Origin: Candidatus Woesearchaeota archaeon | Lineage (GTDB): Archaea; Nanobdellota; Nanobdellia; Pacearchaeales; GW2011-AR1 | Assembly: GCA_964589955.1 (NCBI GenBank) | Contig: CAZPVF010000001.1 | Coordinates: 1 to 62,008, forward strand | Reading direction: 5' to 3' | DNA: 62,008 nucleotides | Shown: positions 13,055 to 45,127 of the stretch, in pieces | How positions within the stretch are numbered: the stretch's first letter is position 1 | How the letters are laid out: each line of letters opens with the position of its first letter | The notes under the pieces: model-generated | Seen by the model: the letters and a program-made list of their open reading frames with translations, nothing else | Told to the model about the DNA's origin: nothing | The model's database searches: none | Position numbers and translations under genes: made by a program

Positions 13055-13101
13055 TAAAAAAATCTAGATAACTTTAAAAACAAACAAAATCACGTTATAA
13101 G

Positions 13102-15813: not shown

Positions 15814-16922
15814 AAAAACACTCCAAAATAGCAATAATTATTGGAACAAAAGCAGAATTAATAAAATGCATGCCAATAATGAAAGAACTTGAAAAGAAAG
15901 GCAAAGATTACTGGTTTATTCACACAGGACAGCATCCGATGGGTCCTGCATGTTTAGAATTCAAAATTAAAAAACCTGATTTTATACTTAGCCCAGAACC
16001 AACAATCTCAACAAAATTTTGGTCAAAAATAAGCAGAGTTGCTTTTATTTGGAACATTGAGATGATCCTAAAGATTAGAAGACTATTAAAAAAATTAAAG
16101 CCAAAATATGTTATTTATCACGGAGACACAATGAGTACCAGCAGTGCTGCAATTGGTTCAAGTGTTGCATTAAATCCAAAAAAGACATGGAAAAATGTTC
16201 ATCTAGAAGCAGGTTTGAGAAGCGGTTCAACATGGGAACCTTTTCCAGAAGAAATTTCTAGAAGAATTTCAGATAAATACTCAGATATTTTACTTGCGGT
16301 TTCAGACCTAACAGAAAAAATATTAAAAAAATCTTACAAAAATAAAAAAATAATAAAAACAGGAAATACAATTGTTGATTCTTCTGATATGATATACAAA
16401 ATTTCTAAAAAAACAATGAAGAAAATAAAGGGCCAATATGCACTAATTAATCTTCATAGACACGAAAACTTAAGAAGTAAAAAAAGAATGCATCAAATAG
16501 CTGAAGTAATAAAAAGTATTGGTATAAAGGCTGTATGGCCTCTTCATGACAACACAGAGTATTATCTAAAAAAATATAATCTTATGAATGAACTTAAAGG
16601 TATAAAAAACCTTGAAATAATTCCTCTTGTTGATTACTTTACATTTATATTTCTTTTAGCTAACTGCAAATACTTAATAACAGATGGAGGAAGCATACAA
16701 GAGGAAAGTTTAGTTTTCAAAAAGCCTTGTGTTCTTTTAAGAAAAAAAACTGAGAGGCCTGAAGGATTAAAAAGTGGATTTAATTTTCTTACTGGAATGG
16801 ATGTGAATAATACAAAAAAATTAATTAAAAAGATTGAAGCGAATAAAATAAAAGTAAAGAAATTTAAAAATCCTTATGGGGAAGTAGGTCTTACAAAAAA
16901 AATTATAGATATTTTAAAATGA
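15810..16922 (+). CDS. UDP-N-acetylglucosamine 2-epimerase family protein
   Basis: IIIGTKAELIKCMPI...HTGQH...HLEAGLRS...PFPEEISRR epimerase_2 motifs. Confidence 0.8.
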   Translation: MKKHSKIAIIIGTKAELIKCMPIMKELEKKGKDYWFIHTGQHPMGPACLEFKIKKPDFILSPEPTISTKFWSKISRVAFIWNIEMILKIRRLLKKLKPKYVIYHGDTMSTSSAAIGSSVALNPKKTWKNVHLEAGLRSGSTWEPFPEEISRRISDKYSDILLAVSDLTEKILKKSYKNKKIIKTGNTIVDSSDMIYKISKKTMKKIKGQYALINLHRHENLRSKKRMHQIAEVIKSIGIKAVWPLHDNTEYYLKKYNLMNELKGIKNLEIIPLVDYFTFIFLLANCKYLITDGGSIQEESLVFKKPCVLLRKKTERPEGLKSGFNFLTGMDVNNTKKLIKKIEANKIKVKKFKNPYGEVGLTKKIIDILK

Positions 16923-18010
16923 AAGTATATCTTCAATTTCCATGGAAAGTTTCTGATAGCACATACTATACAAACATAATAAATTATCCTCCTAAAGGGA
17001 TTGTATACAATGTTAAAAGGAAAAAAAGTGGGATCATTACTAGTAAAAAAAAGTTTAAAATAAATAATAAAATAAAAGAATTAATAAGAGTCTCCTTAAA
17101 TAAAATAAATCTTCCAATACCAAACGCACACAAAACAAACTACAAAGGCCATTATGATCTTATTCACTGTGCACATTGCTTAAGTTTAAATAAAAGACCC
17201 TGGGTTGCTGATTTTGAAGGTGTTTGGCAAATGTGGGTATCTGGAGACAGAACAAAAAGAGGTAAAAAAATTGTTCAAGATATAATTGAGGATAAAAACT
17301 GTAAAAAAATTATGTGTTGGTGTGATGACACAAAAAAAGAATTTCTTAAGACATATCCTAAAATAGAAAAAAAATTAGAAATAGTTTATCCTGCATTTCC
17401 CTTAAAGAAAGTAAAAAAGAAATTAGGTAAAAAAATTAAAATTCTTTATGCAGCAAGATACTTTTGGCTTAAAGGAGGATTAATATCACTTAAAGTACTC
17501 GATTTTCTCCTCAACAAATACAAAAATTTAGAAGTTGTATTTATTTCTGATGTTCCAAAAGAAATAAAAGAAAAATATCCAAAAATACAATTTTTTGATC
17601 TTCTTCCAAAAGAAAAAATGTTTGAACAACTAAAAACCGCAGATATCTTCTTTTATCCAAGCCTTGTAGACACATTTGGGTTCACTGTTCTTGAAGCAAT
17701 GTCATTTGGAATTCCTATTATTAGTGTAAATACAATACAAACTCATGCAAGAAAAGAGATGATGCAAGACAAAATTAATGGTTTTCTAATAGAAGTATCT
17801 GGTAGGCTTAAAAGAAAAAGTATTGGTAAAGAAGAGGAAAAACTAGTAAGAAAATTGATAGAAAAAACATCTATTTTAATAGAAAATAAAAAATTAAGAG
17901 AAAAAATGAGTAAAAATTGTATTAAATTAATAAAGAATGGAAAATTTTCTATCAAAAATAGGAACAAAAAATTAAAAAGCATATACACTCAGGCATTAAA
18001 AGAGAAATAG
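16919..18010 (+). CDS. glycosyltransferase, GT-B fold (GT4-like)
   Basis: C-terminal DTFGFTVLEAMSFGIPIIS motif. Confidence 0.75.
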   Translation: MKVYLQFPWKVSDSTYYTNIINYPPKGIVYNVKRKKSGIITSKKKFKINNKIKELIRVSLNKINLPIPNAHKTNYKGHYDLIHCAHCLSLNKRPWVADFEGVWQMWVSGDRTKRGKKIVQDIIEDKNCKKIMCWCDDTKKEFLKTYPKIEKKLEIVYPAFPLKKVKKKLGKKIKILYAARYFWLKGGLISLKVLDFLLNKYKNLEVVFISDVPKEIKEKYPKIQFFDLLPKEKMFEQLKTADIFFYPSLVDTFGFTVLEAMSFGIPIISVNTIQTHARKEMMQDKINGFLIEVSGRLKRKSIGKEEEKLVRKLIEKTSILIENKKLREKMSKNCIKLIKNGKFSIKNRNKKLKSIYTQALKEK

Positions 18011-18060
18011 TTGCAGTTCAGCACGAAAATATTTATAAAACATTTTTTTTTCACTAAAAA

Positions 18061-19356
18061 ATGGATGAGATAAAAGAGATACAAGAATGTCGGTCTTGCC
18101 ATTCAAAAGAGTTGACCCCTATTATTTCTTTAGGACACCAATATATTAGCAATTTTCTGAAGCCAGAGGACCAAAATCAGGGATCAAAGGTGCCATTAGA
18201 TCTTGTTCTATGCTCAGAATGCAAACTGCTACAATTAAAACATAACGCGCCAGATAATGAGATGTGGGGTGACCAGTATTGGTATAAATCTGGAATAAAT
18301 AAACTTATAAGAGAAGATCTAAAAGACATAGCAGACTGTGCTGAAAAAATAATAAGTTTAAGAGAGGGTGATTTAGTAATCGATATTGGGTGTAATGACG
18401 GAACTTTGTTTGAATTTTATGATAAAGAAGGCGTAGAAATAGTGGGTTTTGAACCTTCAGTAAATGTAGCAAAAGAGGCTGCAGCAAAAAAATTTAAGAT
18501 TATTAACAATTTTTTTAATGCAGAAGATTTTAAAAAAAATTTTGGAGAAAAAAAGGCAAAAATTATCACTGCAATATCAATGTTTTATGACCTAGATAAT
18601 CCAAATAAATTTTTAGAGGATATTCTTTCAATTCTTGATGAAGATGGTCTTTTTATAATTCAACAAAATTATCTAACAACTATGCTTGAAAAAAATGCAT
18701 TTGATAACATTTGCCACGAACATAGAGCATATCACTCACTTGCTTCACTAAAAACACTTCTATCAAAACATGGTTTAGAAATATTTGATGTTAAATTAAG
18801 AGATATAAATGGGGGCAGCATTAGGACATATGTCAGAAGAAAAGAGAACGCTAAGTTATCTCCTTTCAAAGGAGCAAAAAAGAGAATATTACAACTAGAA
18901 GATAGAGAGAGAAAGTTAGGATTAGACACAAATAGACCTTATTTTGAATTTGCGAGCAGAATTGAGAATATAAAATATCAAATACTAAAATTTATAGAAA
19001 GTGAAAAATCAAAGGGAAAAACTTTTGGCCTATGTGGGGCTTCAACAAGAGGAAATACAACACTACAATATTTTGGAATAACTCCTGAACATGTTATTGC
19101 TGCTGCAGAAGCAAATCCAGATAAGTGGGGAAAAGTCACTATAGGAACAAGAATACCAATAGTTTCTATTGATGAGATGAAAAAAATAAATCCAGACTAT
19201 CAAATTGTTCTTATCTGGCATCTATATGAAGGATTAATGGATAAAGAAAAAAATTATCTAAACCAAGGAGGAAAATTTATTTTGCCACTCCCAGAATTTA
19301 AAATAATTGGGTTATCAAAAGAATTTAATAAATTAATGGTAAAAAGTTTTTTATAG
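18061..19356 (+). CDS. SAM-dependent NDP-hexose C-methyltransferase family protein
   Basis: N-terminal Zn-ribbon CRSC...CSEC, class I MTase core DIGCNDG, C-terminal C-methyltransferase-like domain (TylC3-like architecture). Confidence 0.7.
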   Translation: MDEIKEIQECRSCHSKELTPIISLGHQYISNFLKPEDQNQGSKVPLDLVLCSECKLLQLKHNAPDNEMWGDQYWYKSGINKLIREDLKDIADCAEKIISLREGDLVIDIGCNDGTLFEFYDKEGVEIVGFEPSVNVAKEAAAKKFKIINNFFNAEDFKKNFGEKKAKIITAISMFYDLDNPNKFLEDILSILDEDGLFIIQQNYLTTMLEKNAFDNICHEHRAYHSLASLKTLLSKHGLEIFDVKLRDINGGSIRTYVRRKENAKLSPFKGAKKRILQLEDRERKLGLDTNRPYFEFASRIENIKYQILKFIESEKSKGKTFGLCGASTRGNTTLQYFGITPEHVIAAAEANPDKWGKVTIGTRIPIVSIDEMKKINPDYQIVLIWHLYEGLMDKEKNYLNQGGKFILPLPEFKIIGLSKEFNKLMVKSFL

Positions 19357-19357
19357 T

Positions 19358-20290
19358 TTAAATAATTCTAAAATATTCTCCATAACGTTCTAAGTGCTTC
19401 AAAAAGAATTGTCCTAATTTTCCTTTTATTATAGCATATCTTTTTTCTAAATCAAAAGTAGATACATTTTTAGATTTATATTGAGGAATTCCCTTACCAA
19501 AAATAACTGATTCTTTATAATTTTCTAAATCAAAAACCTTTTTTGTTTTTTGTATTCCAATAAAGTATTTGCTTGTGTTTTTTAATATAATATAGTCTAT
19601 CTTTTTTGATACTGAACAGTTTTTAAATAAAGGACTTTTAGAAAAATCTTCAATAATTTCAAACATTCTTTTTTGTAAATTCTTTTTATCCATCTTAACT
19701 TTAAGGTTGCTTGCCTTAGAAATAACTCTTGCTGGATTTCCAGAAATTAGACTATTTTCTGGAAACTCTTTACTTATTACAGACCCCACTGTAATAATAG
19801 AATCATCTCCTATTTTTGCTCCTGGAAGAAATATTACATGTGAAGGTGCCCAAATTCTTTTACCAAGAATAATTTTTCCAAACTTTCTTGGATGTCCTTG
19901 TGTATAAGGCAAGTACACTCCGTGTGTGTAAAATATTGAGTGAGAACCAAGCCCAGTATAATCTCCTATTTCTATATCTTCAGCCAGATTCATGAAGGTA
20001 TAAGGGCCCACTATCTGTGTTTTTTTTCCTAGTTTTAAATTTTTCTGACCAGAAAAAATATTAAGACTTCTTATAACACTTCCTTTTCCAATCTCTAATT
20101 TATTTAGTTTAAAAACATTCATTGAACCTATTTTTACATCGTCTTCAATATTTACATTTTTACATAACATTAAACTAAGAAGTCCTACCTTAACATTTTT
20201 TCCAATTTTATACCCTATTAACCTGTATAAATTTAGTCTAATGATATTTGGCATAATTGAAGCTAAAAAAGCTATTATTTTTTTTACCAT
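19358..20290 (-). CDS. hexapeptide-repeat (left-handed beta-helix) acyltransferase
   Basis: Repeated [LIV]G..x hexads; IGDDSIITVGSVISKEFPENSLISGNPARVI; last gene of the ACP operon. Confidence 0.8.
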   Translation of the reverse strand: MVKKIIAFLASIMPNIIRLNLYRLIGYKIGKNVKVGLLSLMLCKNVNIEDDVKIGSMNVFKLNKLEIGKGSVIRSLNIFSGQKNLKLGKKTQIVGPYTFMNLAEDIEIGDYTGLGSHSIFYTHGVYLPYTQGHPRKFGKIILGKRIWAPSHVIFLPGAKIGDDSIITVGSVISKEFPENSLISGNPARVISKASNLKVKMDKKNLQKRMFEIIEDFSKSPLFKNCSVSKKIDYIILKNTSKYFIGIQKTKKVFDLENYKESVIFGKGIPQYKSKNVSTFDLEKRYAIIKGKLGQFFLKHLERYGEYFRII

Positions 20291-20291
20291 T

Positions 20292-21569
20292 TTAAATTTT
20301 TAATGAATTTATATTTACTAACCTTGACAAGAGCAATTTTCCATCCCACGGAGAGTCATAATAATTCATCTGCCCAATTGGAACAATTCTTGAAACTCCT
20401 TGAAGGTTTAATATTTTGCTTATTTTGGTAAGCTTTTTTGTGTTTTTAAAGCCATGCCCTATTGTCTGGATTTTTGATGTGATCAATTTACCTAAATCTT
20501 CCAAATTATTACAAGAGTTCAAAAAAATTGTTCTAGACTTTACTGGCTCTTCTAAATTTGCTTTTTTTCCAAGTATAATTGTCCACTCAGTTCCTTTAGG
20601 ACAAATTACCTTTTTATCTTCATCAAATGTGTTTTCCACTCTTGCCATAATTACATTTCCTGCTTCATAAAATGTTGTATCTTTTTTTAGATATTTTTCA
20701 TCTAAATTTTCAAATTCTTTTTTTAATAAATTAGATATTTTTTCAAGACCTGTAATATCTGTCTCGCACATCAATACTTGTGGGGAAGTACAACTATCTT
20801 GTTCTCCAAAGATTATATCAAACACAAATTTCTTTAGTGTGCTTGTTAGAAGAATTTCATCAGAGATTAATTCTCTATCAATCATTGCAAAAGAATATTT
20901 TGGACCAAAAACCACATCTTCACAAGTTTCTTTTTTACTAAAACTTGAAATCATTTCAATTGACTCTTTTCCTCCCCATATAATTCTTACATCAGAATTC
21001 ATTGATAATTCTAAATTGGTTTTATCTTCCTCTCTTGGATAGTAAATTAGGGCTGTTGAAGAGAGTACTTCTTTTCCAATCAATTTATCTGTTTTAGTTT
21101 TTATTAATACTCCTAATAAATCTTTTATTGTTTCAACACTTCCAAGAGGAATTCTCATTATATTTGAGTTTTTTATAATAATTGATTGAATTAGAGAGAA
21201 AAATCCGAGAGTAACAACATTTCCTGCAATCCAGTGTCCAACTAAGCCTTTAGGTTGGGCAATAAGCATCTTTCCTTCTTTTTTAAAATAATCTTGAAGA
21301 ATATTTGGGTCTTCAAAATTAATTTTAATTATTTTCTCTAAATTTGTTTTTCTAACCCATTGACTTAAAAAAGCTATTCCCTCTATTTTCCTAGTTTTTT
21401 CATTTTTTAGAATATTTTTGCTAAACTCATTAATTAAATCTAATAGATCTTCGGTTTTTATTTTCTCTAGTTTTCTACTATTTGTTTTTACTTTTTTAAT
21501 TATGCCTAATAGGTTTTCAACTTTTTTTTGCTCAAAAAAATTCTCTGAATCAAAAAATACCTGGATCAT
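20292..21569 (-). CDS. LuxC-like acyl-CoA/acyl-ACP reductase
   Basis: About 425 aa; HWIAGNVVTLGFFSLIQ and overall LuxC-family layout; start moved to the ATG at 21569 (1 nt after the LuxE stop) rather than 21659. Confidence 0.65.
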   Translation of the reverse strand: MIQVFFDSENFFEQKKVENLLGIIKKVKTNSRKLEKIKTEDLLDLINEFSKNILKNEKTRKIEGIAFLSQWVRKTNLEKIIKINFEDPNILQDYFKKEGKMLIAQPKGLVGHWIAGNVVTLGFFSLIQSIIIKNSNIMRIPLGSVETIKDLLGVLIKTKTDKLIGKEVLSSTALIYYPREEDKTNLELSMNSDVRIIWGGKESIEMISSFSKKETCEDVVFGPKYSFAMIDRELISDEILLTSTLKKFVFDIIFGEQDSCTSPQVLMCETDITGLEKISNLLKKEFENLDEKYLKKDTTFYEAGNVIMARVENTFDEDKKVICPKGTEWTIILGKKANLEEPVKSRTIFLNSCNNLEDLGKLITSKIQTIGHGFKNTKKLTKISKILNLQGVSRIVPIGQMNYYDSPWDGKLLLSRLVNINSLKI

Positions 21570-21570
21570 T

Positions 21571-22662
21571 TTAATTATCTGTAAATGTGTCTCCGCAACC
21601 TCTTGGTTCACTTTTTTCAACTCGTGAAACAAATTTAAAATACTTTCCTTTTCTTCCACATTCGCAAGAATCCTTTCCTAAAAAAAGGCCTATGTCCTCA
21701 GTTAAGAGTGCCTGCCCAGGATAACTATTAGGTAATACTGAGATAATCTCTATTAATCCTATTTCGTTTTCTTTTACTTCTTCAAGAGTCAGAGGATTTC
21801 TAATTATTATGTCTGCAAAATTTGGGCAGTGCTTATGCCCTTTATCACAATCAATAAAAACAACTCCGAGTTGTTCAACAAGACCATACATATCTAAAAC
21901 CTGGCTATCTTGACCTAACATATTTTTTAATTCTTTAGTAAAATGTTTTTTATCAACTTTTTCTGAAGTTAGTTTCTTCCATCCTCCACTATGAATTATT
22001 GTAAATTTAATATCATACTTCTTTTTTAGTTTTTTTAATTCTTTATAAAAAATACTCCAAATTATATAAGTAAATCCAAACATTATTATTTCCTGACCAT
22101 TATTTTCTTTAACAAAATTTTCTAATGATTCTAGATTTAATTTTAATTTTTCACTTCCTTCAAGAACATATGTGACATTTTTTCCAAAAGGAATTATTCC
22201 TCTTATTGCAGCACCTCTTGCTGAAAGCCCTTTTAATTTTGGATCATTTACTTGAGGAGTATCTATTACCAGCAATGGTTTTCTGCTAGTACCTAAATAA
22301 TTTTTTAAAATACTTGAATAAGCAGAAGTTTGCCTAAATGCTGTCTTTTTATCTAAATCTATTTTACTTTTAATTTGGCTTGTTGTTCCAGAAGAGGTTA
22401 ATGTCCTAATTATATCTTTTTTTGAAACCAATTCAAATACATGTTTTTTAAATAAATTTACAGGAAGTGGAGGAATATCAGAAAGTGAATTTATTTTATC
22501 TATTGGCATAATCTGATCGTAAAATCTTTTGAGTTTTTTATCCTTAATCTGATTTAATAGCTGTTTTTTTATAATTGGTAGTAGTTTTTTTTCTTTTTGT
22601 TTCTGGTTTAAAGAATATTGCTCTAATGAAATTAAATCATTTATTTCTTTGTCCAAATCCAT
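21571..22662 (-). CDS. LuxE-like acyl-protein synthetase/adenylating enzyme
   Basis: 363 aa; TSSGTTSQ P-loop-like adenylation motif; size and adjacency to LuxC. Confidence 0.65.
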   Translation of the reverse strand: MDLDKEINDLISLEQYSLNQKQKEKKLLPIIKKQLLNQIKDKKLKRFYDQIMPIDKINSLSDIPPLPVNLFKKHVFELVSKKDIIRTLTSSGTTSQIKSKIDLDKKTAFRQTSAYSSILKNYLGTSRKPLLVIDTPQVNDPKLKGLSARGAAIRGIIPFGKNVTYVLEGSEKLKLNLESLENFVKENNGQEIIMFGFTYIIWSIFYKELKKLKKKYDIKFTIIHSGGWKKLTSEKVDKKHFTKELKNMLGQDSQVLDMYGLVEQLGVVFIDCDKGHKHCPNFADIIIRNPLTLEEVKENEIGLIEIISVLPNSYPGQALLTEDIGLFLGKDSCECGRKGKYFKFVSRVEKSEPRGCGDTFTDN

Positions 22663-23690
22663 TCTATTAAACTCCTAATCTTTTCTTCATTAAAGATTAT
22701 TGGAGAGGTTTTTATAACCGGATCTTTTAGAACTCTTTTAATTATTTCTTCTCTATCTATATTTTCTAAGATACTTTTATCAAATTTTATATTAAGTTTA
22801 TCAAATTCTTGTATAAAAAAATCATAAATTTCATTTTGTGTTTCATTTTTATAAAACAAAAGAACTGACTTAATTAGGTGCATTAAAGCCTCAGAGTGTC
22901 TAATATTTGAACAAACTTCAATCTGATGTGCTATAGAGTGCATTGCACCAACATAAGCGTTCCCTTGACAGATTCCCCCAATATGTCCATTTATTGCTAT
23001 ATTATCAAGAACTTTAAGATCTTCTTTATTTTCTATATATTTTTTATAATTATTAACTAATGAAAGAATATTTTCTCTGGCAAGTATTTTAACAAATTCA
23101 TTTGATAATCTTGATAAATAAGCTTCAACAGAATGTGAAAAAATATCACAGATAAACTCTTGCATTAAATTAAAAGGAATGCTTGAGAGTAATTGTGGGG
23201 CTAAGATAGCTTTATTTGGTATGTTTGCCCTATTAACTATTATATGTTTTATACTTTTTTCTTTATTATGAGTAATTGCTACAGGGGTTATTTGTGATCC
23301 TGTTGAAGGAGTGGTAGGAATTAAAATAAGTTTAGTTTTTTTCTTGATTTTAGAAAAATTATTTATTTCAGTTAAGTTCAATTCTTGATTATCTATTTTT
23401 ATTCTTAATAGTTTTGCAAAATCCATAATATTTCCTCCACCTATGGCAATAATTAAAGACGGTTTTTTAATCTCTAATTTTTCTATTTCTTCTAAATTAT
23501 TTTTAATAAAAATTATTTCTTCTATTTGGTTTTCACTTAATAGTTCTTTAATCTTGGCTAGACTTTCATTATCTTCTAGTCTTTTTGAGTAGATTAGTAA
23601 AATTTTTTCTGAAACATTTTCTTTAAGAATGCTTGTGCTTCTAAGTCCAAAATGAGTTTCTGGAATTTTATTAATAAATTGGTTAAACAT
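22641..23690 (-). CDS. iron-containing alcohol dehydrogenase family protein
   Basis: IAIGGGNIMDFAKLL nucleotide-binding motif and His-rich metal site (HSVEAY...HSIAHQ). Confidence 0.75.
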   Translation of the reverse strand: MFNQFINKIPETHFGLRSTSILKENVSEKILLIYSKRLEDNESLAKIKELLSENQIEEIIFIKNNLEEIEKLEIKKPSLIIAIGGGNIMDFAKLLRIKIDNQELNLTEINNFSKIKKKTKLILIPTTPSTGSQITPVAITHNKEKSIKHIIVNRANIPNKAILAPQLLSSIPFNLMQEFICDIFSHSVEAYLSRLSNEFVKILARENILSLVNNYKKYIENKEDLKVLDNIAINGHIGGICQGNAYVGAMHSIAHQIEVCSNIRHSEALMHLIKSVLLFYKNETQNEIYDFFIQEFDKLNIKFDKSILENIDREEIIKRVLKDPVIKTSPIIFNEEKIRSLIEWIWTKK

Positions 23691-23692
23691 TT

Positions 23693-25168
23693 TTATGTTT
23701 TCTTCAATTTAAGGTAATCTAATTTTAATTTAGAATAGTCAGTTTTTAGTGAACTATTCTTAGGGAGGCTTTGAGCAAAAATAATTTCAGACGGAACTTC
23801 GTAGTTTCTTAGATTTTTGCTACAATAATCCAATACATCTTTGTTTTTTAAAGTTTCAGTTGGAGAGATATATGCTATAATTCTCTCACCTAGTAAATTA
23901 TCGTCTACGCCAAAAACAGCGACATCGGAAACTCCTAGTAATTTATAGATTGCTTCTTCTATTTTTTTACTGCTTATTCTAAATCCTCTAGATTTAATAA
24001 AATTCTCTTTTCTTTCTAAAACATAAATATATCCTTCACTATCTATTGTTGCTATATCTCCTGTTCTTAACATCCCCTTAACAATTTTTTTATTTGTTTC
24101 CTCCGGATCATTATAATACCCCTTCATTATATTTTTTCCAGAAGCATAAATTTCACCTACCTCTTCTTTTTTAATGGGATTTAGACTAGAGTCTAAGACT
24201 TTTAGGATAGTTCCGGGTAGTCCCCTGCCAATAGATCCTAACTTTTTGTCTAATTTTTTTGGATCAAGAACAGAAAGTCTTGCTGTTGCTTCTGTTTGGC
24301 CATACATTATGTATACATTTTCTTGTCCAAAAACCTCTATTAATTTTTTAATATCTTGGTTTGGAAGTTTTCCACCTGCTTGCTGTACACATCTAATTTT
24401 TGGGAATTTTTTTTCTAATAAAGTTGATTTTCTTATTAATAACTGAAATGTTGTGGGCACTCCTGCAATTCCTGTGCATTCTTCTTTTATTAGACCTTCA
24501 ACAATTTTTTCTGGAAGAAAAAAATTATTATTAAAAACCATCTGTGCTCCAACTCTAAGATGGGTGTGTAATAAACTTACACCAAAACAATAATAAAATG
24601 GTAAAACAACCATTATCTTATCTTTATCTGTTAAAAACAATGATTCTATAATTGATTGCGTATTAGAGATAATATTTATATGTGAGATCATTACTCCTTT
24701 TGCTTTTCCGGAAGTTCCTGAAGTATACATTATTGAAGCTGTTTTATCATCTGAAAAATCTTCAAGTTCAAAAGATTCTTTAAATTCTTCGCAATCAAGT
24801 ATTTCTTCAGAATAAATTTCACTAAAAGAGGTTAGTTTGATTAATTTTTTGAATTTCTCTTGTATGAAAATATGTTTTGATTTTAACTCCTCTTTTATTT
24901 TTTTAATATCCATATCTCTTTCATATCTTAAGGGAACACAAACATTTCCACTGCCAATTATAGATAAGTAACTTATAACAAAAAACAAAGAGTTATCAGA
25001 AATTAAGAGAATATTATTATCCTTTCCTAGAGATTCATTTAATTTTTTTATAAGGTGTATTATTTTAGCATAAATTTCTTTATAATTAAATTTTTGTTCA
25101 TTTAATTTTATTGCGGTTTGTTCGCCCTTTTCAACTTTTTCAAATAACCATTTTGTAGCATTGCTCAT
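23693..25168 (-). CDS. AMP-dependent synthetase/ligase (ANL superfamily)
   Basis: YTSGTSGKAKGVMISH, YGQTE, GDIA...ERKENFIK motifs; ATGA overlap with the ACP gene. Confidence 0.85.
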   Translation of the reverse strand: MSNATKWLFEKVEKGEQTAIKLNEQKFNYKEIYAKIIHLIKKLNESLGKDNNILLISDNSLFFVISYLSIIGSGNVCVPLRYERDMDIKKIKEELKSKHIFIQEKFKKLIKLTSFSEIYSEEILDCEEFKESFELEDFSDDKTASIMYTSGTSGKAKGVMISHINIISNTQSIIESLFLTDKDKIMVVLPFYYCFGVSLLHTHLRVGAQMVFNNNFFLPEKIVEGLIKEECTGIAGVPTTFQLLIRKSTLLEKKFPKIRCVQQAGGKLPNQDIKKLIEVFGQENVYIMYGQTEATARLSVLDPKKLDKKLGSIGRGLPGTILKVLDSSLNPIKKEEVGEIYASGKNIMKGYYNDPEETNKKIVKGMLRTGDIATIDSEGYIYVLERKENFIKSRGFRISSKKIEEAIYKLLGVSDVAVFGVDDNLLGERIIAYISPTETLKNKDVLDYCSKNLRNYEVPSEIIFAQSLPKNSSLKTDYSKLKLDYLKLKKT

Positions 25169-25419
25169 AATTTTACTCCTTTTTGAATCAATATCTTTTT
25201 CAGTAAACCGAAATTTTCAATTCCATTTATTTCATCAACCTCGAATTGAATATTAAATTCCTCTTCTATTTTTGATACAAGCTCCATATGTGTTATAGAA
25301 TCCCAATTAGGAATTTGTTCTGGTCCGTTTTCATCTTTCAAATCGTTCTTTGAACATTTTAATAAATCAATCACCAAAGATTCTAGTTTTTCTATATTTC
25401 CCATTTTATTTTCGCTCAT
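25165..25419 (-). CDS. acyl carrier protein
   Basis: 84 aa, acidic; DSITHMELV phosphopantetheine-attachment Ser motif. Confidence 0.8.
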   Translation of the reverse strand: MSENKMGNIEKLESLVIDLLKCSKNDLKDENGPEQIPNWDSITHMELVSKIEEEFNIQFEVDEINGIENFGLLKKILIQKGVKL

Positions 25420-25792
25420 TTAATACAGGCACTTTTCTACAAGTTGCAATGCAGTCCAAGACTTTTTCTCCTTTTTGATTTAATGTGACAATATCTAATT
25501 TTTTAACTGAATTTTCAAGAGGAGTTATTTCAATTACCTTAATTTTGAGTATATCTCCAATATATGTGGGTTTAAGAAATTTAATTTCTTCTGAGAGAAG
25601 AATATTCCCCTGTCCCATTTTATCAGTGAGTAGTTTGGATATTTTTGCAAGAATAATTGTTCCGTGCGCTATTCTTTTTTTAAAAGGGGTTCTGCTTGCA
25701 AATTTTTCGTCTACATGAATAGGATTCTTGTCTCCACTAAATTCAGCAAAAGTATCAATTATTTCCTCAGTAATATGAAGTATTGCTTCCAT
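25406..25792 (-). CDS. MaoC-like (R)-hydratase/dehydratase, hot-dog fold
   Basis: FAEFSGDKNPIHVDEKFASRTPFKKRIAHGT. Confidence 0.8.
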   Translation of the reverse strand: MEAILHITEEIIDTFAEFSGDKNPIHVDEKFASRTPFKKRIAHGTIILAKISKLLTDKMGQGNILLSEEIKFLKPTYIGDILKIKVIEITPLENSVKKLDIVTLNQKGEKVLDCIATCRKVPVLNERK

Positions 25793-25831
25793 TTAATAAA
25801 ATTATTTAAATTCCATCTATTTATTAAGTTT

Positions 25832-26164
25832 ATGGAGGTCGGAGTAGACATTCAGGAAAATAAGGCTTTTAAGAGCTTTAAAGGAAATATTCATTTTTAT
25901 AAAAGGATTTTCACAAAAAAAGAAATTGATTACTGTATAAGAAGAAAAGATTATAAATCTGCTTTTTGTGCAAAATTTTGTGTAAAAGAGGCAGTAATAA
26001 AGATTTTTGATAAAAAAATTAATTACAAAGAAATTGAAGTCTTAAATACAAAATCTGGAAAACCATATGTATTAATTAAAGGGGAAAAAAGAAAAAATAT
26101 TTCAGTTTCACTATCACACACACAAAACTATTGTGTAGGTGTAGCAGTATTGAAAAATGTCTAG
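25832..26164 (+). CDS. acpS: holo-ACP synthase (4'-phosphopantetheinyl transferase, AcpS type)
   Basis: 110 aa from the ATG at 25832: VGVDIQE...FTKKEIDYC...FCVKEAVIK...VSLSHT; the longer ORF from 25664 would overlap the MaoC gene. Confidence 0.7.
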   Translation: MEVGVDIQENKAFKSFKGNIHFYKRIFTKKEIDYCIRRKDYKSAFCAKFCVKEAVIKIFDKKINYKEIEVLNTKSGKPYVLIKGEKRKNISVSLSHTQNYCVGVAVLKNV

Positions 26165-26942
26165 AAAAAAACAAACAATAGCAATCTCAATTCATGTTGA
26201 TGGGTACTATGGATTAGTAAAAGGTGTTCCAAGAATTCTGAAACTATTAAAAAAATACAAAATTAAAACCACATTTTTTATAAACATGGGAAAAGAAGCA
26301 AATATTTTTCAATTACTTAAGTATAGGAGAAATCATAAGAATTCTCAAAAAAATTTAAAGGTAGAAAAAAGATACACAAAAATTGAGCAAGCTAGTATGA
26401 TTCTTTTAAATAGAAAATTGGGACAGAATTATAAAAAATTGCTTATTGAAATAGAAAAACAGGGTCACGAGGTTGAGCCACATTGTTGGAGCCATCTACT
26501 TTGGTCAAAAAACTTTGAAAAGTTAAATCATAAAAAAGAGATTTTTTTAATGAAAAGAGCTTATGAAAACATTTTTAATAAATCTCCAAAAGGATTTGCC
26601 CCACCAACATGGAAGTATAATCAAAAAGTTATTGAATTACTAAAAGAGGCTAACTTTCAATATATTGCAGTAAGTGATACTGCTAAAACAATTAAAAAGA
26701 AAGACGGTTTCTTTATTATTCCTGTCTCCTTTAGTAAAAATATAGAAGAATTAATTAGTGGGGGGCATAAAAAAGAAAAGATAATTAAGATATATAAAAA
26801 AGAACTAAACAAAAAATATGTAAACATATATTTTCATTCTGATTTTGAGGGAATAAAAGGACTTAGGCTCTTTGAAGAGGTTCTGAACCTAATTAAAGGG
26901 AAAAAAACCTTCACTTATCTTGAATTAATTAAAGATAAATAA
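26157..26942 (+). CDS. polysaccharide deacetylase (CE4/ArnD-like)
   Basis: ISIHVDG...TTFFINMG...GHEVEPHCWSH metal-site motifs. Confidence 0.7.
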   Translation: MSRKKQTIAISIHVDGYYGLVKGVPRILKLLKKYKIKTTFFINMGKEANIFQLLKYRRNHKNSQKNLKVEKRYTKIEQASMILLNRKLGQNYKKLLIEIEKQGHEVEPHCWSHLLWSKNFEKLNHKKEIFLMKRAYENIFNKSPKGFAPPTWKYNQKVIELLKEANFQYIAVSDTAKTIKKKDGFFIIPVSFSKNIEELISGGHKKEKIIKIYKKELNKKYVNIYFHSDFEGIKGLRLFEEVLNLIKGKKTFTYLELIKDK

Positions 26943-28018
26943 AGATCCTGATACTTTTTAGAAATAGGTGTAAGTCCATTTTCATTAAAAAACCTAGAAC
27001 ATTCTTTTTGCATTTCAAGATAGTTTTTACTTTTCATTGCGCTTTTTATTGCTCTTGGGAAATCCTTGTCATTTTTTGCCAAAACCAAACATCCATAATT
27101 TTTTGCAAATTCTTTGAAATATTGGGCATTACTCGCAACAACTGGTTTTTTCATAGCCATAGCATCAGCAAATATCCCGCTTCCTATTCCTCCTCTATAG
27201 GGTAGGAGAATTAAATCTGATGCAGCAAAATATTTCCACCATTTTTTATAAGGTATCTCTCCTAAATCAAATCTAACAAAATTTTGAAAATTATTTTCCT
27301 TAACTATTTGCTTATTATAATCTAAAAAATTCTTTGTTCTAGACAAATTCCGATCATTAACTGAAATGGGGTTTGTAGCAACCAAAACAGTCTTTCCTAT
27401 TTTATCTGCTTGTTTTATTATTATATCGTGTCCATGTAATGGTCCCATTACACCAATTAACAAATAAACATTTCCAGAAAGATTTAATTCTTTTCTTGCT
27501 CTTTTTTTACTAACTGTTTTTATATTTTCAATAATAGCATGAGGAAGAACAACAATTTTCTCTTTAGGAACAGAGTACTCTTTTATCAAAATTTCTCTAA
27601 AAAATTTAGCATGTACTACAATTTTTTTTGATGTTAAATTAATCCACCTATTCTGCAAATGGTATAATAATTTTCTTAAAAATGTTTTAAATTTACCGGA
27701 TCTAAATCTTTCTTTTTGAGAAAGGATTGTGTGCATTGTGACAATTAATTTTTTTTTCTTAATAAAACAAAGAAAACCAAGAAAAAAGAAATACGGGAGG
27801 CCAAACCATCCAAGCATATTATACTCGTGTTGAATATGAATAATATCATATTTTAAAAGAGTTTTTAATTTTTTAAACAAAGAAAAAGGATTTCCTGCAA
27901 TAAAAGAAATTCCCAAAATATTTGTTTTTTGTTTTTTTATATTCTCTATAAGATTCTCTGAATAAGCCGAAATACCTTTTTCAGATTTTGGATCTGGGTA
28001 AACCATTGCAATTCTCAT
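26915..28018 (-). CDS. glycosyltransferase, GT-B fold (GT4-like)
   Basis: 367 aa; GGIGSGIFADAMAMKKPVV E-x7-E-like C-terminal region. Confidence 0.7.
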   Translation of the reverse strand: MRIAMVYPDPKSEKGISAYSENLIENIKKQKTNILGISFIAGNPFSLFKKLKTLLKYDIIHIQHEYNMLGWFGLPYFFFLGFLCFIKKKKLIVTMHTILSQKERFRSGKFKTFLRKLLYHLQNRWINLTSKKIVVHAKFFREILIKEYSVPKEKIVVLPHAIIENIKTVSKKRARKELNLSGNVYLLIGVMGPLHGHDIIIKQADKIGKTVLVATNPISVNDRNLSRTKNFLDYNKQIVKENNFQNFVRFDLGEIPYKKWWKYFAASDLILLPYRGGIGSGIFADAMAMKKPVVASNAQYFKEFAKNYGCLVLAKNDKDFPRAIKSAMKSKNYLEMQKECSRFFNENGLTPISKKYQDLYLSLINSR

Positions 28019-28129: not shown

Positions 28130-29149
28130 ATGAAAAAAGCTTTGGTAACAGGAATTACAGGCCAAGATGGATATTACTTAGCAAAATTTCTGTTAAAAAA
28201 AGGTTATGATGTTTATGGAATGTACAGAAGATCCAGCCTACATATTAGCGAAAGGATTGATGAAAAACTAAAAAACGTTAAACTTGTTGAGGGCGATCTC
28301 ACAGACGGAGAATCCATTTTAAGACTTATTAGAGAGATATACCCTGATGAAGTTTATAATCTAGCATCGCAATCGTTTGTTCCTGCTTCTTGGACCCAAC
28401 CAATTGCAACTGCTAATATGACTGGCCTTGGAGCTGCAAGAATACTTGAAGCAATAAAAATAGTTAATAAAAACATTAAGTATTATCAAGCGTCAACAAG
28501 TGAAATGTTTGGCCAAGTAGAAGAATCTCCACAAAATGAAAGAACTCCTTTTCATCCAAGAAGCCCGTACGGTGTTGCGAAGGTTTATGCATATTGGATA
28601 ACGAGAAACTACAAAGAAAGTTTTGACATTTTTACATGCAATGGTATTTTATTTAATCACGAATCTCCAAGAAGAGGAAAAGAATTTGTAACAAGAAAAA
28701 TCACTTACGCTACTGCAAAAATAAAACTAGGGCTACAAGATTATTTAGAGATAGGAAATTTGGATGCGAAAAGAGATTGGGGCTATGCTGAAGATTACGT
28801 TGAGGCTATGTGGATGATGCTTCAACAAGAGAAACCAGAAGATTTTGTTATTGCTACGGGAGAAACACACACAATAAGAGAGTTTTTAGAGGTAGCATTT
28901 AGAGTCCTAGATATGAATATTGTTTGGGAAGGCCAAGGACTTGAAGAAGTTGGCAAGGTTGATGGAAAAATAGTGGTTAAAATAAATCCGAAGTACTATA
29001 GGCCTGCAGAAGTAGATATATTAAAAGGAGACTATTCAAAAGCAAGAGAAAAATTAAAATGGATCCCAAAGACAAATTTTCAAGAACTTGTTAAGGTAAT
29101 GGTTGAGAGTGATTTAAAACAAGTTAAAAAAGAAGAAAATATGAAATAA
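28130..29149 (+). CDS. gmd: GDP-mannose 4,6-dehydratase
   Basis: VTGITGQDGYYLAKFLL, YQASTSEMFG, SPYGVAKVYAYW, NHESPRRG. Confidence 0.92.
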   Translation: MKKALVTGITGQDGYYLAKFLLKKGYDVYGMYRRSSLHISERIDEKLKNVKLVEGDLTDGESILRLIREIYPDEVYNLASQSFVPASWTQPIATANMTGLGAARILEAIKIVNKNIKYYQASTSEMFGQVEESPQNERTPFHPRSPYGVAKVYAYWITRNYKESFDIFTCNGILFNHESPRRGKEFVTRKITYATAKIKLGLQDYLEIGNLDAKRDWGYAEDYVEAMWMMLQQEKPEDFVIATGETHTIREFLEVAFRVLDMNIVWEGQGLEEVGKVDGKIVVKINPKYYRPAEVDILKGDYSKAREKLKWIPKTNFQELVKVMVESDLKQVKKEENMK

Positions 29150-29257: not shown

Positions 29258-30418
29258 ATGAAAGAAACTGTTCTTATTTTAGGTGCTGATGGATACATTG
29301 GATGGAATTTAATGATGTATCTTGGAAGAAAAAATCAGGGTCTTGTTGTAGGAATAGATAATTATTCTAGAAGAAAATTAGTTAACAAAGTTAAAGGAGA
29401 CAGCCTTATTCCTATTGCTTCAATGAAAACAAGAATTGAAGCCTATAAGGAAGTTTTTAAAAAAAATAATTTAAGATTTTTTGCATTTGATATAACCAAC
29501 AGCCACCTTCTAAGAAAAGCCATAAAAAAAATTAGACCAACAATCATAATTAATCTTGCGCAAATGCCTTCAGCACCATACTCAATGAAAAATTTAGGCT
29601 ATGCGGCATGGACAATTAAAAATAATGTTATAGGAAACCTTAATCTATTATGGATAATGAGAGAGATTTGCCCTAAAGCACATTTAATTAAGATGGGCAC
29701 AATGGGAGAGTATGGGACTCCAAATGTAGATATTCCTAAAGGTTTTTTTGAATTAAAATATAAGGGAAGAAAAGATTGGGTTCCGTTTCCAAGACAAGCA
29801 GGAAGTTTTTATCATTGGGCTAAAGTTACTGAAAGCCAACATACAAATTTTGCTTGCAAAATTTGGGGACTAAGAGCAACAGACATGATGCAAGGAGTGG
29901 TATATGGGGTAACAACAGAAGAGAGCCAAAAAGATTCAAGACTTGCAGGAAGATTTGACTATGATGGAGTTTTTGGAACTGCAATTAATAGATTTGTTGT
30001 GCAGTCAATGTGTGGAATACCTATGACACCATTCGGAAAAGGAGGCCAAATTAGAGGATTCTTAAATATTAAAGACTCTTTAAAATGTTTTGAATTATAC
30101 ATAAATAATCCTCCAAAAGAAGGAGAGTATAGGGTTTTTAATCAGCTTGTAGAACAACACAGAACTGTTACACAGCTTGCAGACATGGTTAAACAAATTG
30201 GAAAGAAAAAGGGGTATAATTCATCTATTAAAAAAATAAAAAACCCAAGAATTGAAAACGAAAAACATTATTATAACGCTGAAACCACTAAATTAACCAA
30301 ACTAGGATTAATAGCCTCTGATTTTAGAAAAGAAATAGAAAAGATGTTTGATGACTTAAAGCCATATATACATAGAGTAAATAAAGAGTCTATTATTCCA
30401 AAGATTACTTGGAAATAA
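29258..30418 (+). CDS. UDP-sulfoquinovose synthase-like SDR (SQD1/Agl3 family)
   Basis: ILGADGYIGW...GIDNYSRR...MGTMGEYGTP...SFYHWAKV...MQGVVYG resembles SQD1 more than plain GalE. Confidence 0.65.
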   Translation: MKETVLILGADGYIGWNLMMYLGRKNQGLVVGIDNYSRRKLVNKVKGDSLIPIASMKTRIEAYKEVFKKNNLRFFAFDITNSHLLRKAIKKIRPTIIINLAQMPSAPYSMKNLGYAAWTIKNNVIGNLNLLWIMREICPKAHLIKMGTMGEYGTPNVDIPKGFFELKYKGRKDWVPFPRQAGSFYHWAKVTESQHTNFACKIWGLRATDMMQGVVYGVTTEESQKDSRLAGRFDYDGVFGTAINRFVVQSMCGIPMTPFGKGGQIRGFLNIKDSLKCFELYINNPPKEGEYRVFNQLVEQHRTVTQLADMVKQIGKKKGYNSSIKKIKNPRIENEKHYYNAETTKLTKLGLIASDFRKEIEKMFDDLKPYIHRVNKESIIPKITWK

Positions 30419-30424
30419 ACTCAG

Positions 30425-31303
30425 ATGAAAATTCTTATACTCCTTAAACGTTGGAAAGGAGGAATCGGAACCTATGTTCTTGAAGTTAGTAATGAATTAA
30501 AAAAGCAGGGACATCATGTTGATGTTATTTCTCGTGAAGATGATTTAAAAAAATTTTCAGTATGGGGTTCTGTTAGTGTACTAAGAAAAAAAGTTACTGA
30601 TATGATGAAAAAAGAAAAATATGATATCTTATATACACAAGATTGGAGCCTTGCTCTTCCTTTTTTCTTTCCTATACCTATTTTTAGAAAAAAACATTTT
30701 TGTGGTTTTGGGGGAATACAAGTAGGAAAAGCAAGTCTTTTACAAAAGATAGTGGGCAAACTATTAGGAAAAAATTTGATTTCTTATGGAGATCCTGTAA
30801 AAAAAGCCTTTCCTTTATCTAAACAAATATTTAATGGAGTAAATTTAGAGAAATTCAAACCAATTAAAAAAATAAAAAGAATAAAAAATAGTGTCGGCAT
30901 GGTTAATATGCCTACAGAAGTCTGGCATATTAGTGCACTAAAATCTGCAACAAAAAAAGCAGGAAAAAAATTCTTTAATATATGGGGAGTGCCACAAAAA
31001 GAAATGCCTAAATTTTACAATAAAATAGAAACTTTTGTTAGTCTTCCTCCAAAACACACAGGATTTAATCTATGTTGGTTAGAGGCAATGGCTTGTGGTG
31101 TTCCAAAAATCATTGGAAGTAATGCAGGAATTGGGTGCAGATTACCAATAGATAAAATTGAAAATTATAAAAACATTGAAGACGCACTAAAAAAAGTAAA
31201 AAAGAAAGATTATAGAAAAATTATAGAAGAAAAATTTTCTTGGGAGATTCATGTAAAAAAACTCGTGAATTTTTTTAAAGAATCACTTCAAAAAGAATTA
31301 TAA
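30425..31303 (+). CDS. glycosyltransferase, GT-B fold (short GT4-like)
   Basis: N-terminal GGIGTYV, C-terminal GFNLCWLEAMACGVPKI. Confidence 0.65.
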   Translation: MKILILLKRWKGGIGTYVLEVSNELKKQGHHVDVISREDDLKKFSVWGSVSVLRKKVTDMMKKEKYDILYTQDWSLALPFFFPIPIFRKKHFCGFGGIQVGKASLLQKIVGKLLGKNLISYGDPVKKAFPLSKQIFNGVNLEKFKPIKKIKRIKNSVGMVNMPTEVWHISALKSATKKAGKKFFNIWGVPQKEMPKFYNKIETFVSLPPKHTGFNLCWLEAMACGVPKIIGSNAGIGCRLPIDKIENYKNIEDALKKVKKKDYRKIIEEKFSWEIHVKKLVNFFKESLQKEL

Positions 31304-38312: not shown

Positions 38313-38434
38313 CGCCCAGAGCAGGATTTGAACCTGCGACTTTCTCCTTACACCGACTCCTCGCAATTTCCTAGACAGGAAATAAAACGCTCATCGTAGG
38401 AGGGAGACGCTCTATCCAGCTGAGCTATCTGGGC
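38313..38434 (-). tRNA. tRNA-Arg(CCT) with 48-nt intron at the canonical 37/38 position
   Basis: Exons GCCCAGATAGCTCAGCTGGATAGAGCGTCTCCCTCCTA / AGGAGAAAGTCGCAGGTTCAAATCCTGCTCTGGGCG give a full cloverleaf; the intron carries the hairpin TTTCC-TGTCTA-GGAAA. Confidence 0.8.
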
Positions 38435-44820: not shown

Positions 44821-44867
44821 ATTAAAATAAAGATAACGAACTTTTTAAAGAATTATAATAATTAAAG

Positions 44868-44981
<114 letters not shown>

Positions 44982-45043
44982 AAAAATACTTTGTAAAATC
45001 ACTTTATAAAGCTTTTTATATGGGAGATTTATATTTTAAATAT

Positions 45044-45127
45044 GCGGAGTTGCCGGAGTGGTCAAACGGGCTGGATTAAGGCTCCAGTGGCTTAGTGCCT
45101 GCGAGGGTTCGAATCCTTTACTCCGCA
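45044..45127 (+). tRNA. tRNA-Leu, type II; the 7-nt anticodon loop TTAAGGC reads as AAG by canonical numbering
   Basis: GCGGAGTTGCCGGAGTGGTCAAACGGGCTGGATTAAGGCTCCAGTGGCTTAGTGCCTGCGAGGGTTCGAATCCTTTACTCCGCA; acceptor, D and T arms almost identical to tRNA-Leu(CAA) at 38498-38581. Confidence 0.8.

Follow-up and report, generated by a model that had tools for sequence, protein, structure and literature searches.

A nine-gene acyl carrier protein module that probably decorates an N-glycan sugar in a DPANN archaeon

Introduction

The putative "tetronate" genes of Vibrio cholerae O1, wbeK–wbeO (rfbK–rfbO, VC0248–VC0252), attributed to Morona et al. (1995) in a paper citing that work, are the closest described counterpart of the gene set reported here. 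RfbK is a carrier protein, RfbL/WbeL (VC0249) a ligase that activates 2,4-dihydroxybutanoate onto CoA or RfbK, WbeM (VC0250) an iron-containing alcohol dehydrogenase, and WbeN (VC0251) a fused 825-aa synthase/reductase. The wbeL gene is required for V. cholerae O1 antigen. Herein, we describe a unit of similar architecture in a 62,008-nucleotide stretch of archaeal DNA (contig CAZPVF010000001.1, referred to as the window). It consists of nine genes over about 7.6 kb: a seven-gene operon and a divergent pair encoding an AcpS-type phosphopantetheinyl transferase and a polysaccharide deacetylase. On balance, we consider it probable that this is a native archaeal module that decorates a sugar of an AglB-dependent N-glycan with an unusual acyl group borne on an acyl carrier protein (ACP).

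Related combinations occur in other settings. The flagellin glycosylation islands of Aeromonas group II and Enterobacteriaceae contain genes for an ACP, an AMP-synthetase, a 3-oxoacyl-ACP reductase, LuxE, and LuxC, for which the authors suggested a "liposugar" product. These islands resemble the window in placing an ACP-ligase-reductase-LuxE-LuxC core within a protein-glycosylation island. They differ in being bacterial, in using a short-chain dehydrogenase/reductase (SDR, FabG-type) instead of an iron-type alcohol dehydrogenase (Fe-ADH), and in serving O-linked flagellin glycans on pseudaminic acid. With the fatty-acid reductase of luminous bacteria (LuxC-LuxD-LuxE), the window unit has in common the fold families, the catalytic cysteines, and the adenylation Lys/Arg pair. 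Unlike the Lux complex, the context here is glycan synthesis and the acid is probably short, and genes for the LuxD transferase and the LuxAB luciferase are both absent from the window. In the LpxC/LpxD system of lipid A and the NodB/NodF/NodA system of Nod factors, a deacetylase exposes a hexosamine amine, onto which an ACP-borne acyl group is installed. NodB is a carbohydrate esterase family 4 (CE4) enzyme and LpxD a hexapeptide-repeat acyltransferase, as in the window. This likeness is an analogy, not orthology, and the acyl groups of those systems are fatty acids from fatty acid synthase or NodE, unlike the short acyl group proposed here.

Results and Discussion

Nine Genes Form One Compact Unit

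The genes of the unit, with their Pfam matches and E values, are as follows.

25406–25792, minus strand: MaoC-type (R)-specific enoyl-thioester hydratase, 128 aa, at the head of the operon (PF01575 MaoC_dehydratas, 1.9e-19)
25165–25404, minus strand: dedicated ACP, 79 aa (PP-binding, PF00550, 1.4e-4)
23693–25168, minus strand: AMP-forming ligase (adenylating enzyme), 491 aa (AMP-binding, 2.3e-59, and AMP-binding_C)
22641–23690, minus strand: Fe-ADH, 349 aa (Fe-ADH, 2.3e-22, and ADH_Fe_C, 1.3e-17)
21571–22662, minus strand: LuxE-type acyl-protein synthetase, 363 aa (PF04443, 5.8e-60)
20292–21569, minus strand: LuxC-type acyl-thioester reductase, 425 aa (PF05893, 2.2e-62)
19358–20290, minus strand: two-domain hexapeptide acyltransferase, 310 aa (Hexapep, 4.9e-8)
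25793–25831, between the two arms: divergent spacer, 39 nt, with two conserved AT-rich boxes
25832–26164, plus strand: AcpS-type 4'-phosphopantetheinyl transferase (PPTase), 110 aa (PF01648, 3e-15)
26157–26942, plus strand: ArnD-like CE4 polysaccharide deacetylase, 261 aa (PF01522, 8.5e-18)

An earlier note on this DNA had described a seven-gene acyl side-chain operon at 19358–25792. All seven minus-strand open reading frames (ORFs) are present there, and each matched the Pfam family that the note had named. The extent of the unit required revision, as the PPTase and the CE4 deacetylase had been overlooked and bring the total to nine. The tight packing it reported was confirmed, but not the repeated ATGA overlaps. 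By ORF coordinates, only ACP and ligase overlap by ATGA, ADH and LuxE overlap by 22 nt, and the remaining gaps measure 1 nt (MaoC/ACP, LuxE/LuxC, LuxC/acyltransferase) or 2 nt (ligase/ADH). These two overlaps and four short gaps indicate that the seven genes form one operon. AcpS and the deacetylase overlap by 8 nt and diverge from it. For all nine proteins, Pfam, NCBIfam, and PDB matches together with a motif check gave a family assignment with the catalytic residues in place, apart from an atypical first CE4 motif in the deacetylase.

The boxes of the spacer, AATAAA and TTTA(A/T)ATAA, were unchanged between the window and four related loci, even though the proteins are only about 55% identical. 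Each box precedes the start codon at the opposite end of the spacer by about 20–35 nt. This arrangement suggests that the spacer would act as a compact bidirectional archaeal promoter giving leaderless transcripts.

Comparison with the V. cholerae Set

The window unit and WbeK–O agree in components and order, namely carrier, AMP-ligase, Fe-ADH, LuxE and LuxC functions, and then a hexapeptide acyltransferase, and both sets lie inside a surface-glycan locus. The resemblance to rfbKLMNO proposed in the earlier note thus stands, at the level of architecture and by published descriptions. Several features set the window apart. LuxE and LuxC are encoded by separate genes instead of the fused WbeN, a MaoC hydratase and a dedicated AcpS are added, and a CE4 deacetylase is found where V. 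cholerae has a perosamine pathway with an aminotransferase. In addition, the acyltransferase carries an extra orphan C-terminal domain, and the glycan is archaeal and AglB-dependent. The window unit is therefore a distinct variant of the WbeK–O-like module. Of the 80 loci that a genome scan kept, none was from V. cholerae. Sequence searches of plasmids with tblastn returned distant LuxC matches only (22–27% identity); the one region inspected, on a Pantoea megaplasmid, had a nonglycan context, and an Escherichia coli match was annotated only as acyl-CoA reductase.

Enzymes of the Carrier-Protein Side

The ACP exceeded the PP-binding gathering score (22.5 against 20.8 bits) and matched NCBIfam ACP models at 1.6e-5, with the phosphopantetheine attachment serine at Ser36 in a DSI motif. 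An alternative ATG at 25419 would give an 84-aa protein; gene callers picked the 79-aa form. AcpS scored 60.2 bits against TIGR00556 (cutoff 45.35) and contains the N-terminal GVDIQE and the KEAVIK motifs. Because the unit supplies its own enzyme for converting apo-ACP to holo-ACP, ACP chemistry is possible in this host.

The ligase retains the motifs TSGTSGKAK, YGQTE, and GDI and the C-terminal lysine of PKNSSLK. Its best solved relatives are a carrier-protein-loading adenylation domain of a nonribosomal peptide synthetase and the o-succinylbenzoate, malonate, and oxalate ligases, and it is presumably the enzyme that loads the ACP. MaoC has the hydratase-2 motif GDKNPIH intact, and its best solved relative is an (R)-specific enoyl-CoA hydratase (PDB 5cpg, 1.7e-17).

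Enzymes of the Reductive Side

LuxE and LuxC were aligned with their counterparts in PDB 7xc6. The cryo-EM study of the LuxC-LuxE complex defines catalytic residues including Lys238 and Arg355 (PMC9157457). LuxE of the window keeps the lysine in GGWK, the Arg355 equivalent, and the C-terminal acylated cysteine (RGCG, Cys356). LuxC keeps the active-site cysteine (CTSPQ, Cys260), which is invariant in the homologue alignment. Alternative upstream starts for LuxC exist at 21611 and 21659; the start giving 425 aa agrees with homologue N-termini. The Fe-ADH contains a GGG motif and the metal-site pattern D182/H186/H251/H255. Its solved relatives use C2–C4 substrates (the ADH domain of AdhE, propanediol and lactaldehyde reductases, and butanol dehydrogenase), and it presumably catalyzes the aldehyde-to-alcohol step.

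Proposed Route to the Acyl Group

We infer every chemical step of the following route, and equally which acid is used, whether loading precedes reduction, and which group acts as acceptor. AcpS would first convert the dedicated ACP to its holo form. The AMP-ligase would then attach a small dicarboxylic acid, with malate, fumarate, or succinate as the likely class, to the ACP through one of its two carboxyls, and MaoC may hydrate an enoyl intermediate, as in the conversion of fumaryl to malyl. LuxE would adenylate the free distal carboxyl and hand it to LuxC, LuxC would reduce it to the aldehyde, and Fe-ADH would reduce the aldehyde to the alcohol. The ACP would end up bearing a short omega-hydroxyacyl group, predicted to be of the 4-hydroxy- or dihydroxybutanoyl class. 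Applied to malate, this route would lead to the 2,4-dihydroxybutanoyl group found in V. cholerae. Finally, a glycan sugar would receive the acyl group through the action of the two-domain hexapeptide acyltransferase. The likeliest site would be the amine freed when the ArnD-like deacetylase strips the N-acetyl group from a lipid- or nucleotide-linked N-acetylhexosamine (HexNAc).

The case for a di-acid comes from the invariant core of the module. It contains two ATP-dependent carboxylate activators, the ligase and LuxE, which points to a substrate with two carboxyls, one tethered and one reduced. The solved relatives of the ligase (dicarboxylate ligases) and of the ADH (C2–C4) weakly favor a short di-acid as well. 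On the acceptor side, the cassette is always accompanied by the CE4 deacetylase and usually by a UDP-GlcNAc 2-epimerase, so de-N-acetylation followed by N-acylation is favored. By analogy, the LpxC/LpxD and NodB/NodF/NodA systems likewise favor a deacetylate-then-reacylate logic.

Several points weigh against this scheme. At the biochemical level, every step is putative in all organisms, V. cholerae included, and the likeness to V. cholerae is one of architecture and gene order, not of direct sequence comparison. The MaoC gene is present in 6 of the 8 related DPANN contigs and in Asgard loci; its absence from the other two makes it accessory and not essential to the module. Two aspartates are usual in the first CE4 motif, which is atypical in the window deacetylase and reads HVD. 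This enzyme could also act independently of the acyltransferase.

Further counterpoints concern the length of the acyl chain. LuxC and LuxE canonically act on long-chain fatty acids, myristate in particular, and the best NCBIfam subfamily match of the ligase, although below cutoff, is named long-chain-fatty-acid-CoA ligase. Together with the liposugar proposed for the flagellin islands, these observations suggest a different module, in which a long-chain fatty acid taken from the host would be loaded by the ligase onto the ACP. Its fate would be either reduction by LuxE, LuxC, and ADH to a fatty aldehyde or fatty alcohol or incorporation by the acyltransferase into a liposugar. We judge this decidedly unlikely. 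The unit lacks chain-building enzymes (ketosynthase, enoyl reductase), and two carboxylate activators would be redundant for a monocarboxylic fatty acid. The short-chain relatives of the ADH and the dicarboxylate ligases among the solved relatives of the AMP-ligase point the other way. LuxC and LuxE scored far under the NCBIfam lux equivalog cutoffs (99.6 against 750 and 83.9 against 550, respectively), and where a product of this architecture is known, in a single organism, it is a C4 hydroxy acid.

Acyltransferase, Deacetylase, and the Site of Acylation

The acyltransferase combines a left-handed beta-helix (LbH) of the maltose/galactoside acetyltransferase type with a lineage-restricted C-terminal domain of about 110 aa. 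PDB entries 4egg and 3ftt matched residues 84–195 at 7e-15, and His123, at the catalytic position, was invariant in 26 homologues. The deacetylase matched NCBIfam ArnD (PRK15394) over residues 8–249 at 1.1e-19, with 70.8 bits against a cutoff of 382 and thus below it, and PDB ArnD 8t0j aligned with residues 8–243 at 5.7e-5. Its HCWSH (HxxxH) metal motif is present.

The nearest relatives of the beta-helix are the maltose, galactoside, WbbJ, and WcaF O-acetyltransferases. This placement in the O-acetyltransferase branch of the hexapeptide family makes O-acylation as plausible as N-acylation from the transferase's side, which also tells against the proposed route. The same acyl factory could accordingly serve a transferase that acylates a sugar hydroxyl. 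The CE4 enzyme would then have a separate role, for instance producing a free amine or carrying out an ArnD-like deformylation of a lipid-linked intermediate. ArnD is a deformylase acting on lipid-linked aminoarabinose and does not itself serve to ready a sugar for acylation. Linkage of the deacetylase to the cassette is hard to explain if the two are unrelated. Its gene is translationally coupled to that of AcpS, all eight related contigs place this pair with the cassette, and in a Micrarchaeia locus it comes after the acyltransferase genes. Moreover, RfbO is reportedly of the LacA/NodL/CysE (hexapeptide) type, and the tetronate N-linked. For these reasons we regard O-acylation as rather unlikely, albeit a serious alternative, and N-acylation remains the preferred reading.

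The C-terminal domain of the acyltransferase (19361–19705, minus strand) was predicted with confidence (pLDDT 85–91) as a helix, six strands, and a helix. The beta-helix part was modeled poorly (pLDDT 50–70), so only the model of the C-terminal domain is usable. A fold search of the acyltransferase model against PDB gave no significant match (best E 0.097), and the C-terminal domain had no PDB fold match. Among 1.84 billion proteins, only 4 credible representative clusters matched this domain. Our guess is that it docks the ACP.

The idea that the wider acyltransferase family is always linked to an ACP was dropped. Among distant-homologue loci with enough flank, an ACP or ligase gene lay within 6 kb in 12 of 36, and a tight link between acyltransferase and cassette was confined to close orthologues (8 of 8). 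One further locus (L091, 4750–5679), on a 7.2-kb contig, encodes an acyltransferase orthologue with 54% identity and a CE4 deacetylase-like gene beside thiolase-like ORFs, with the ACP-ligase-FeADH-LuxE-LuxC cassette absent. Proximity to the cassette is thus not a constant feature of the two-domain transferase.

The Contig Is Archaeal and Continuous

The contig carries archaeal host markers: Orc1/Cdc6 followed by both PolD subunits, an intron-containing tRNA, SecY, prefoldin, aIF-2B, and AglB. PolD DP2 is 73–77% identical to proteins of metagenome-assembled genomes named Nanoarchaeota or Pacearchaeota, and one close orthologue of the acyltransferase is labeled Pacearchaeota. The host is a DPANN archaeon of the Pacearchaeota/Nanoarchaeota type. 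The tRNA in question is a 122-nt Rfam match (57.5 bits) at 38313–38434 on the minus strand, between tRNA-Gly and tRNA-Leu and without an ARAGORN call; its length indicates an intron, an archaeal hallmark.

A bacterial fragment mis-joined into an archaeal contig was considered as a rival, and nothing was found in its favor. GC content was flat along the contig (0.25–0.33). The tetranucleotide composition of the operon correlated with that of the rest of the contig at r = 0.986, within the 0.972–0.992 of other 6.4-kb chunks. Contigs of two other assemblies span the junctions: one from ENA agreed at 99.995% identity along 21.5 kb, and one from Logan was 100% identical along 5.3 kb. The same junctions recur in eight related contigs. 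As far as sequence allows, composition, other assemblies, and synteny rule out the chimeric mis-assembly that the earlier note had named as a finding that would refute it, and we put the chance of an artifact at practically nil.

The Module in Related Archaea

Eight related DPANN contigs (L085–L090, L093, L094) contain the arrangement [deacetylase<-AcpS][(MaoC)-ACP-ligase-FeADH-LuxE-LuxC-acyltransferase], with AcpS in the identical position in all of them. AglB adjoins the cassette in 8 of 8. A WecB-type epimerase and a GT1-family glycosyltransferase were found in most, and an AglH-like transferase in four. Where flanks suffice, the wider neighborhood is also kept, with SpoIIM and aIF-2B (L085, L086) and an EMC3-like gene and SecY (L086). 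Identity to the window was 49–62% for cassette proteins and 36–52% for AglB, which indicates that the unit diverged along with its flanks. The remainder of the island varies: a GMD-like gene (GDP-mannose 4,6-dehydratase) is found in some related contigs and absent from others, a DegT aminotransferase occurs in one only, and the C-methyltransferase and sulfoquinovose-synthase-like genes of the window have no counterpart in the eight. The Micrarchaeia locus reads AcpS-ACP-ligase-FeADH-LuxE-LuxC-LbH-LbH-deacetylase-epimerase-GT (glycosyltransferase)-Wzx.

By LuxC identity, the closest homologues, on metagenome contigs (54–58%), are followed by Asgard archaea of six candidate classes (40–43%), including the cultured Lokiarchaeum ossiferum and Promethearchaeum syntrophicum, and then by Clostridium (36–39%). 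Besides these two strains, the Asgard clusters come from Thor-, Hel-, Hermod-, Sigyn-, and Heimdall-archaeal metagenome-assembled genomes. Most Asgard loci have the order ACP-ligase-FeADH-LuxE-LuxC, and in Thor loci, Hel loci, and L. ossiferum it is directly preceded by MaoC. Many add an Sfp-type PPTase, a NeuD/PglD-type N-acyltransferase, a PseC/LegC-type sugar 4-aminotransferase, and an initiating Glycos_transf_4 enzyme. Most Asgard clusters share with the window the core order, a MaoC gene that is usually nearby, and a PPTase and a Glycos_transf_4 gene nearby. They have a Sfp-type PPTase, a 215-aa NeuD/PglD-type N-acyltransferase, and the aminotransferase, whereas the window has AcpS, the two-domain transferase, and the deacetylase. 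Mevalonate genes adjoin the cassette in each cultured Asgard strain (L003/L010, L. ossiferum, 16142–21287; L004/L011, P. syntrophicum), and both have HMG-CoA synthase and an MVD-like gene there; in the longer L. ossiferum locus, HMG-CoA reductase and a GHMP kinase then follow.

A neighbor-joining tree was built from concatenated LuxE and LuxC. The window and five related contigs formed a clade with 100% bootstrap, as did the Clostridium sequences, and deeper nodes received 4–38%. Native composition, junctions reproduced in other assemblies, synteny with AglB, and the fully supported clade together argue that the unit is native to its DPANN lineage. Bacterial acquisition, which the earlier note had proposed, is contradicted by the same evidence if meant as a recent event, and the nearest named relatives are Asgard archaea. 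With deep nodes at 4–38%, an older acquisition is not demonstrable.

One Clostridium locus was examined (L058, Clostridium carboxidivorans P7, 4342–16077). It contains ACP-ligase-LuxE-LuxC without an ADH, next to a GntR regulator, a protein of the HpaB/4-hydroxybutyryl-CoA-dehydratase family, a class I/II aminotransferase, and pyruvate:ferredoxin oxidoreductase. This catabolic-gene context marks a metabolic, not a glycan, use of the same core.

The Glycan Island and the Perosamine Question

The cassette is embedded in the following genes, of which those at 12056–19356 were identified by Pfam.

12056–13054, plus strand: AglH-like phospho-sugar transferase (GT4, initiating Glycos_transf_4)
13102–15813, plus strand: AglB oligosaccharyltransferase (STT3), WWDYG motif at residue 597
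15810–16922, plus strand: WecB-type UDP-GlcNAc 2-epimerase (TIGR00236, 208.6 bits against a cutoff of 210.15)
16919–18010, plus strand: GT1-family glycosyltransferase
18061–19356, plus strand: nucleoside diphosphate (NDP)-hexose C-methyltransferase (Methyltransf_13/14)
26915–28018, minus strand: GT4, variable part of the island
28130–29149, plus strand: GMD (TIGR01472, 486.6 bits against a cutoff of 415)
29258–30418, plus strand: UDP-sulfoquinovose-synthase-like SDR (NF041015, 7e-142, 472.9 bits, below the cutoff of 575)
30425–31303, plus strand: glycosyltransferase, variable part of the island
31326–32045, plus strand: methyltransferase, variable part of the island
32064–33029, plus strand: ORF of no assigned family, variable part of the island
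33000–34376, minus strand: Wzx-type flippase, variable part of the island

One island therefore holds AglB with WWDYG, an AglH-like Glycos_transf_4 enzyme, glycosyltransferases, and a Wzx-type flippase, the components of an AglB-dependent N-glycosylation locus. This bears out the archaeal glycan-island setting given in the earlier note. It was likewise correct that a genuine GMD lies 2.3 kb away and that no DegT-type aminotransferase is visible: a phmmer search with Asgard DegT against all ORFs of the window gave none at E < 1e-5.

The reading built on these elements is that an rfbKLMNO-type set of bacterial origin makes tetronate (2,4-dihydroxybutanoyl) and N-acylates GDP-perosamine supplied through the nearby GMD. 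The architecture and order shared with V. cholerae RfbK–N, the authentic GMD, and the rarity of ACP systems in archaea speak for it. The window encodes neither an aminotransferase nor a perosamine synthase, however. A GMD-like gene accompanies the cassette in some related contigs only, while the deacetylase and AcpS are always near it. The composition and the lineage-specific LuxE and LuxC clade described above, with Asgard archaea as nearest named relatives, tell against it as well, and in the nearest bacterial clade, the one Clostridium locus examined has the module outside glycan loci. In addition, the GMD has an alternative partner in the C-methyltransferase at 18061–19356, with Coxiella virenose as a putative precedent for a route from GMD to a 3-C-methyl-6-deoxyhexose. 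This pairing suggests that GMD more plausibly feeds the NDP-hexose C-methyltransferase, toward a branched 3-C-methyl-6-deoxyhexose, than perosamine synthesis. The perosamine link was thus not upheld, and we consider this explanation very unlikely.

The SDR at 29258–30418 may point to a sulfoquinovose-like component of a DPANN glycan; sulfoquinovose is known in N-glycans of Sulfolobus.

A Possible Counterpart in an Asgard N-Glycan

Glycoproteomics of P. syntrophicum found that all three N-glycans begin with a linking sugar of 304.127 Da, tentatively assigned as HexNAc plus threonine (PMC11284389). Acyl groups were not considered, and the glycosylation genes were described as not clustered near aglB (PMC11284389). 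The formula C12H20N2O7 equals C6H12N2O3 + C2H2O + C4H6O3, that is, a diamino-dideoxyhexose bearing N-acetyl and N-dihydroxybutanoyl groups, one of each. In P. syntrophicum MK-D1, an initiating phospho-sugar transferase is directly followed by ACP-ligase-FeADH-LuxE-LuxC, with a 4-aminotransferase and a PglD-type N-acyltransferase nearby. Since the class of the initiating phospho-sugar transferase determines the linking sugar, an N-acetyl, N-dihydroxybutanoyl sugar would be the expected product of this cluster.

We therefore raise, as an unlikely but concrete possibility, that ACP-dependent hydroxy-acylation of amino sugars is widespread in Asgard and DPANN N-glycans and may explain the 304.127-Da sugar. 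The agreement is a mass coincidence among several isomers, and a 6-deoxy diamino sugar would need a trihydroxybutanoyl group instead. If true, the organism of the window is predicted to carry a hexosamine residue with a dihydroxybutanoyl group, HexN(dihydroxybutanoyl), of 263.1005 Da.

Even for V. cholerae, whose protective O1 antigen, also a phage receptor, depends on it, the module type has had putative status since 1995. Its core in two cultured Asgard archaea, one of them with an unexplained N-glycan sugar mass, offers a testable route to this chemistry in both domains. In the searchable literature, we found no description of the cassette in archaea, nor of the Asgard clusters. Retention of a unit of about 7.6 kb for a surface glycan by a small-genome, host-dependent DPANN archaeon would imply strong selection on cell-surface chemistry at the host interface. 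The picture of archaea without ACP chemistry would also be corrected, with the ACP here serving dedicated glycan tailoring, not fatty-acid synthesis.

Other Features of the Contig

Beyond the glycan island, the string Orc1/Cdc6, PolD DP1, and PolD DP2 (53522–60713) follows a 940-nt spacer of about 25% GC, a candidate replication origin; a search for origin repeats upstream of orc1/cdc6 gave weak repeats only. The stretch 45043–52716 holds a tRNA-Leu(aag), small ORFs, a tyrosine recombinase (47080–47907), and a helix-turn-helix protein (51976–52716), and may be an integrated element. It also encodes a pyrimidine-dimer glycosylase fused to a HAD hydrolase (48398–49333). A 5S rRNA gene at 44867–44981 on the minus strand stands alone, as neither a 16S nor a 23S gene is close to it.

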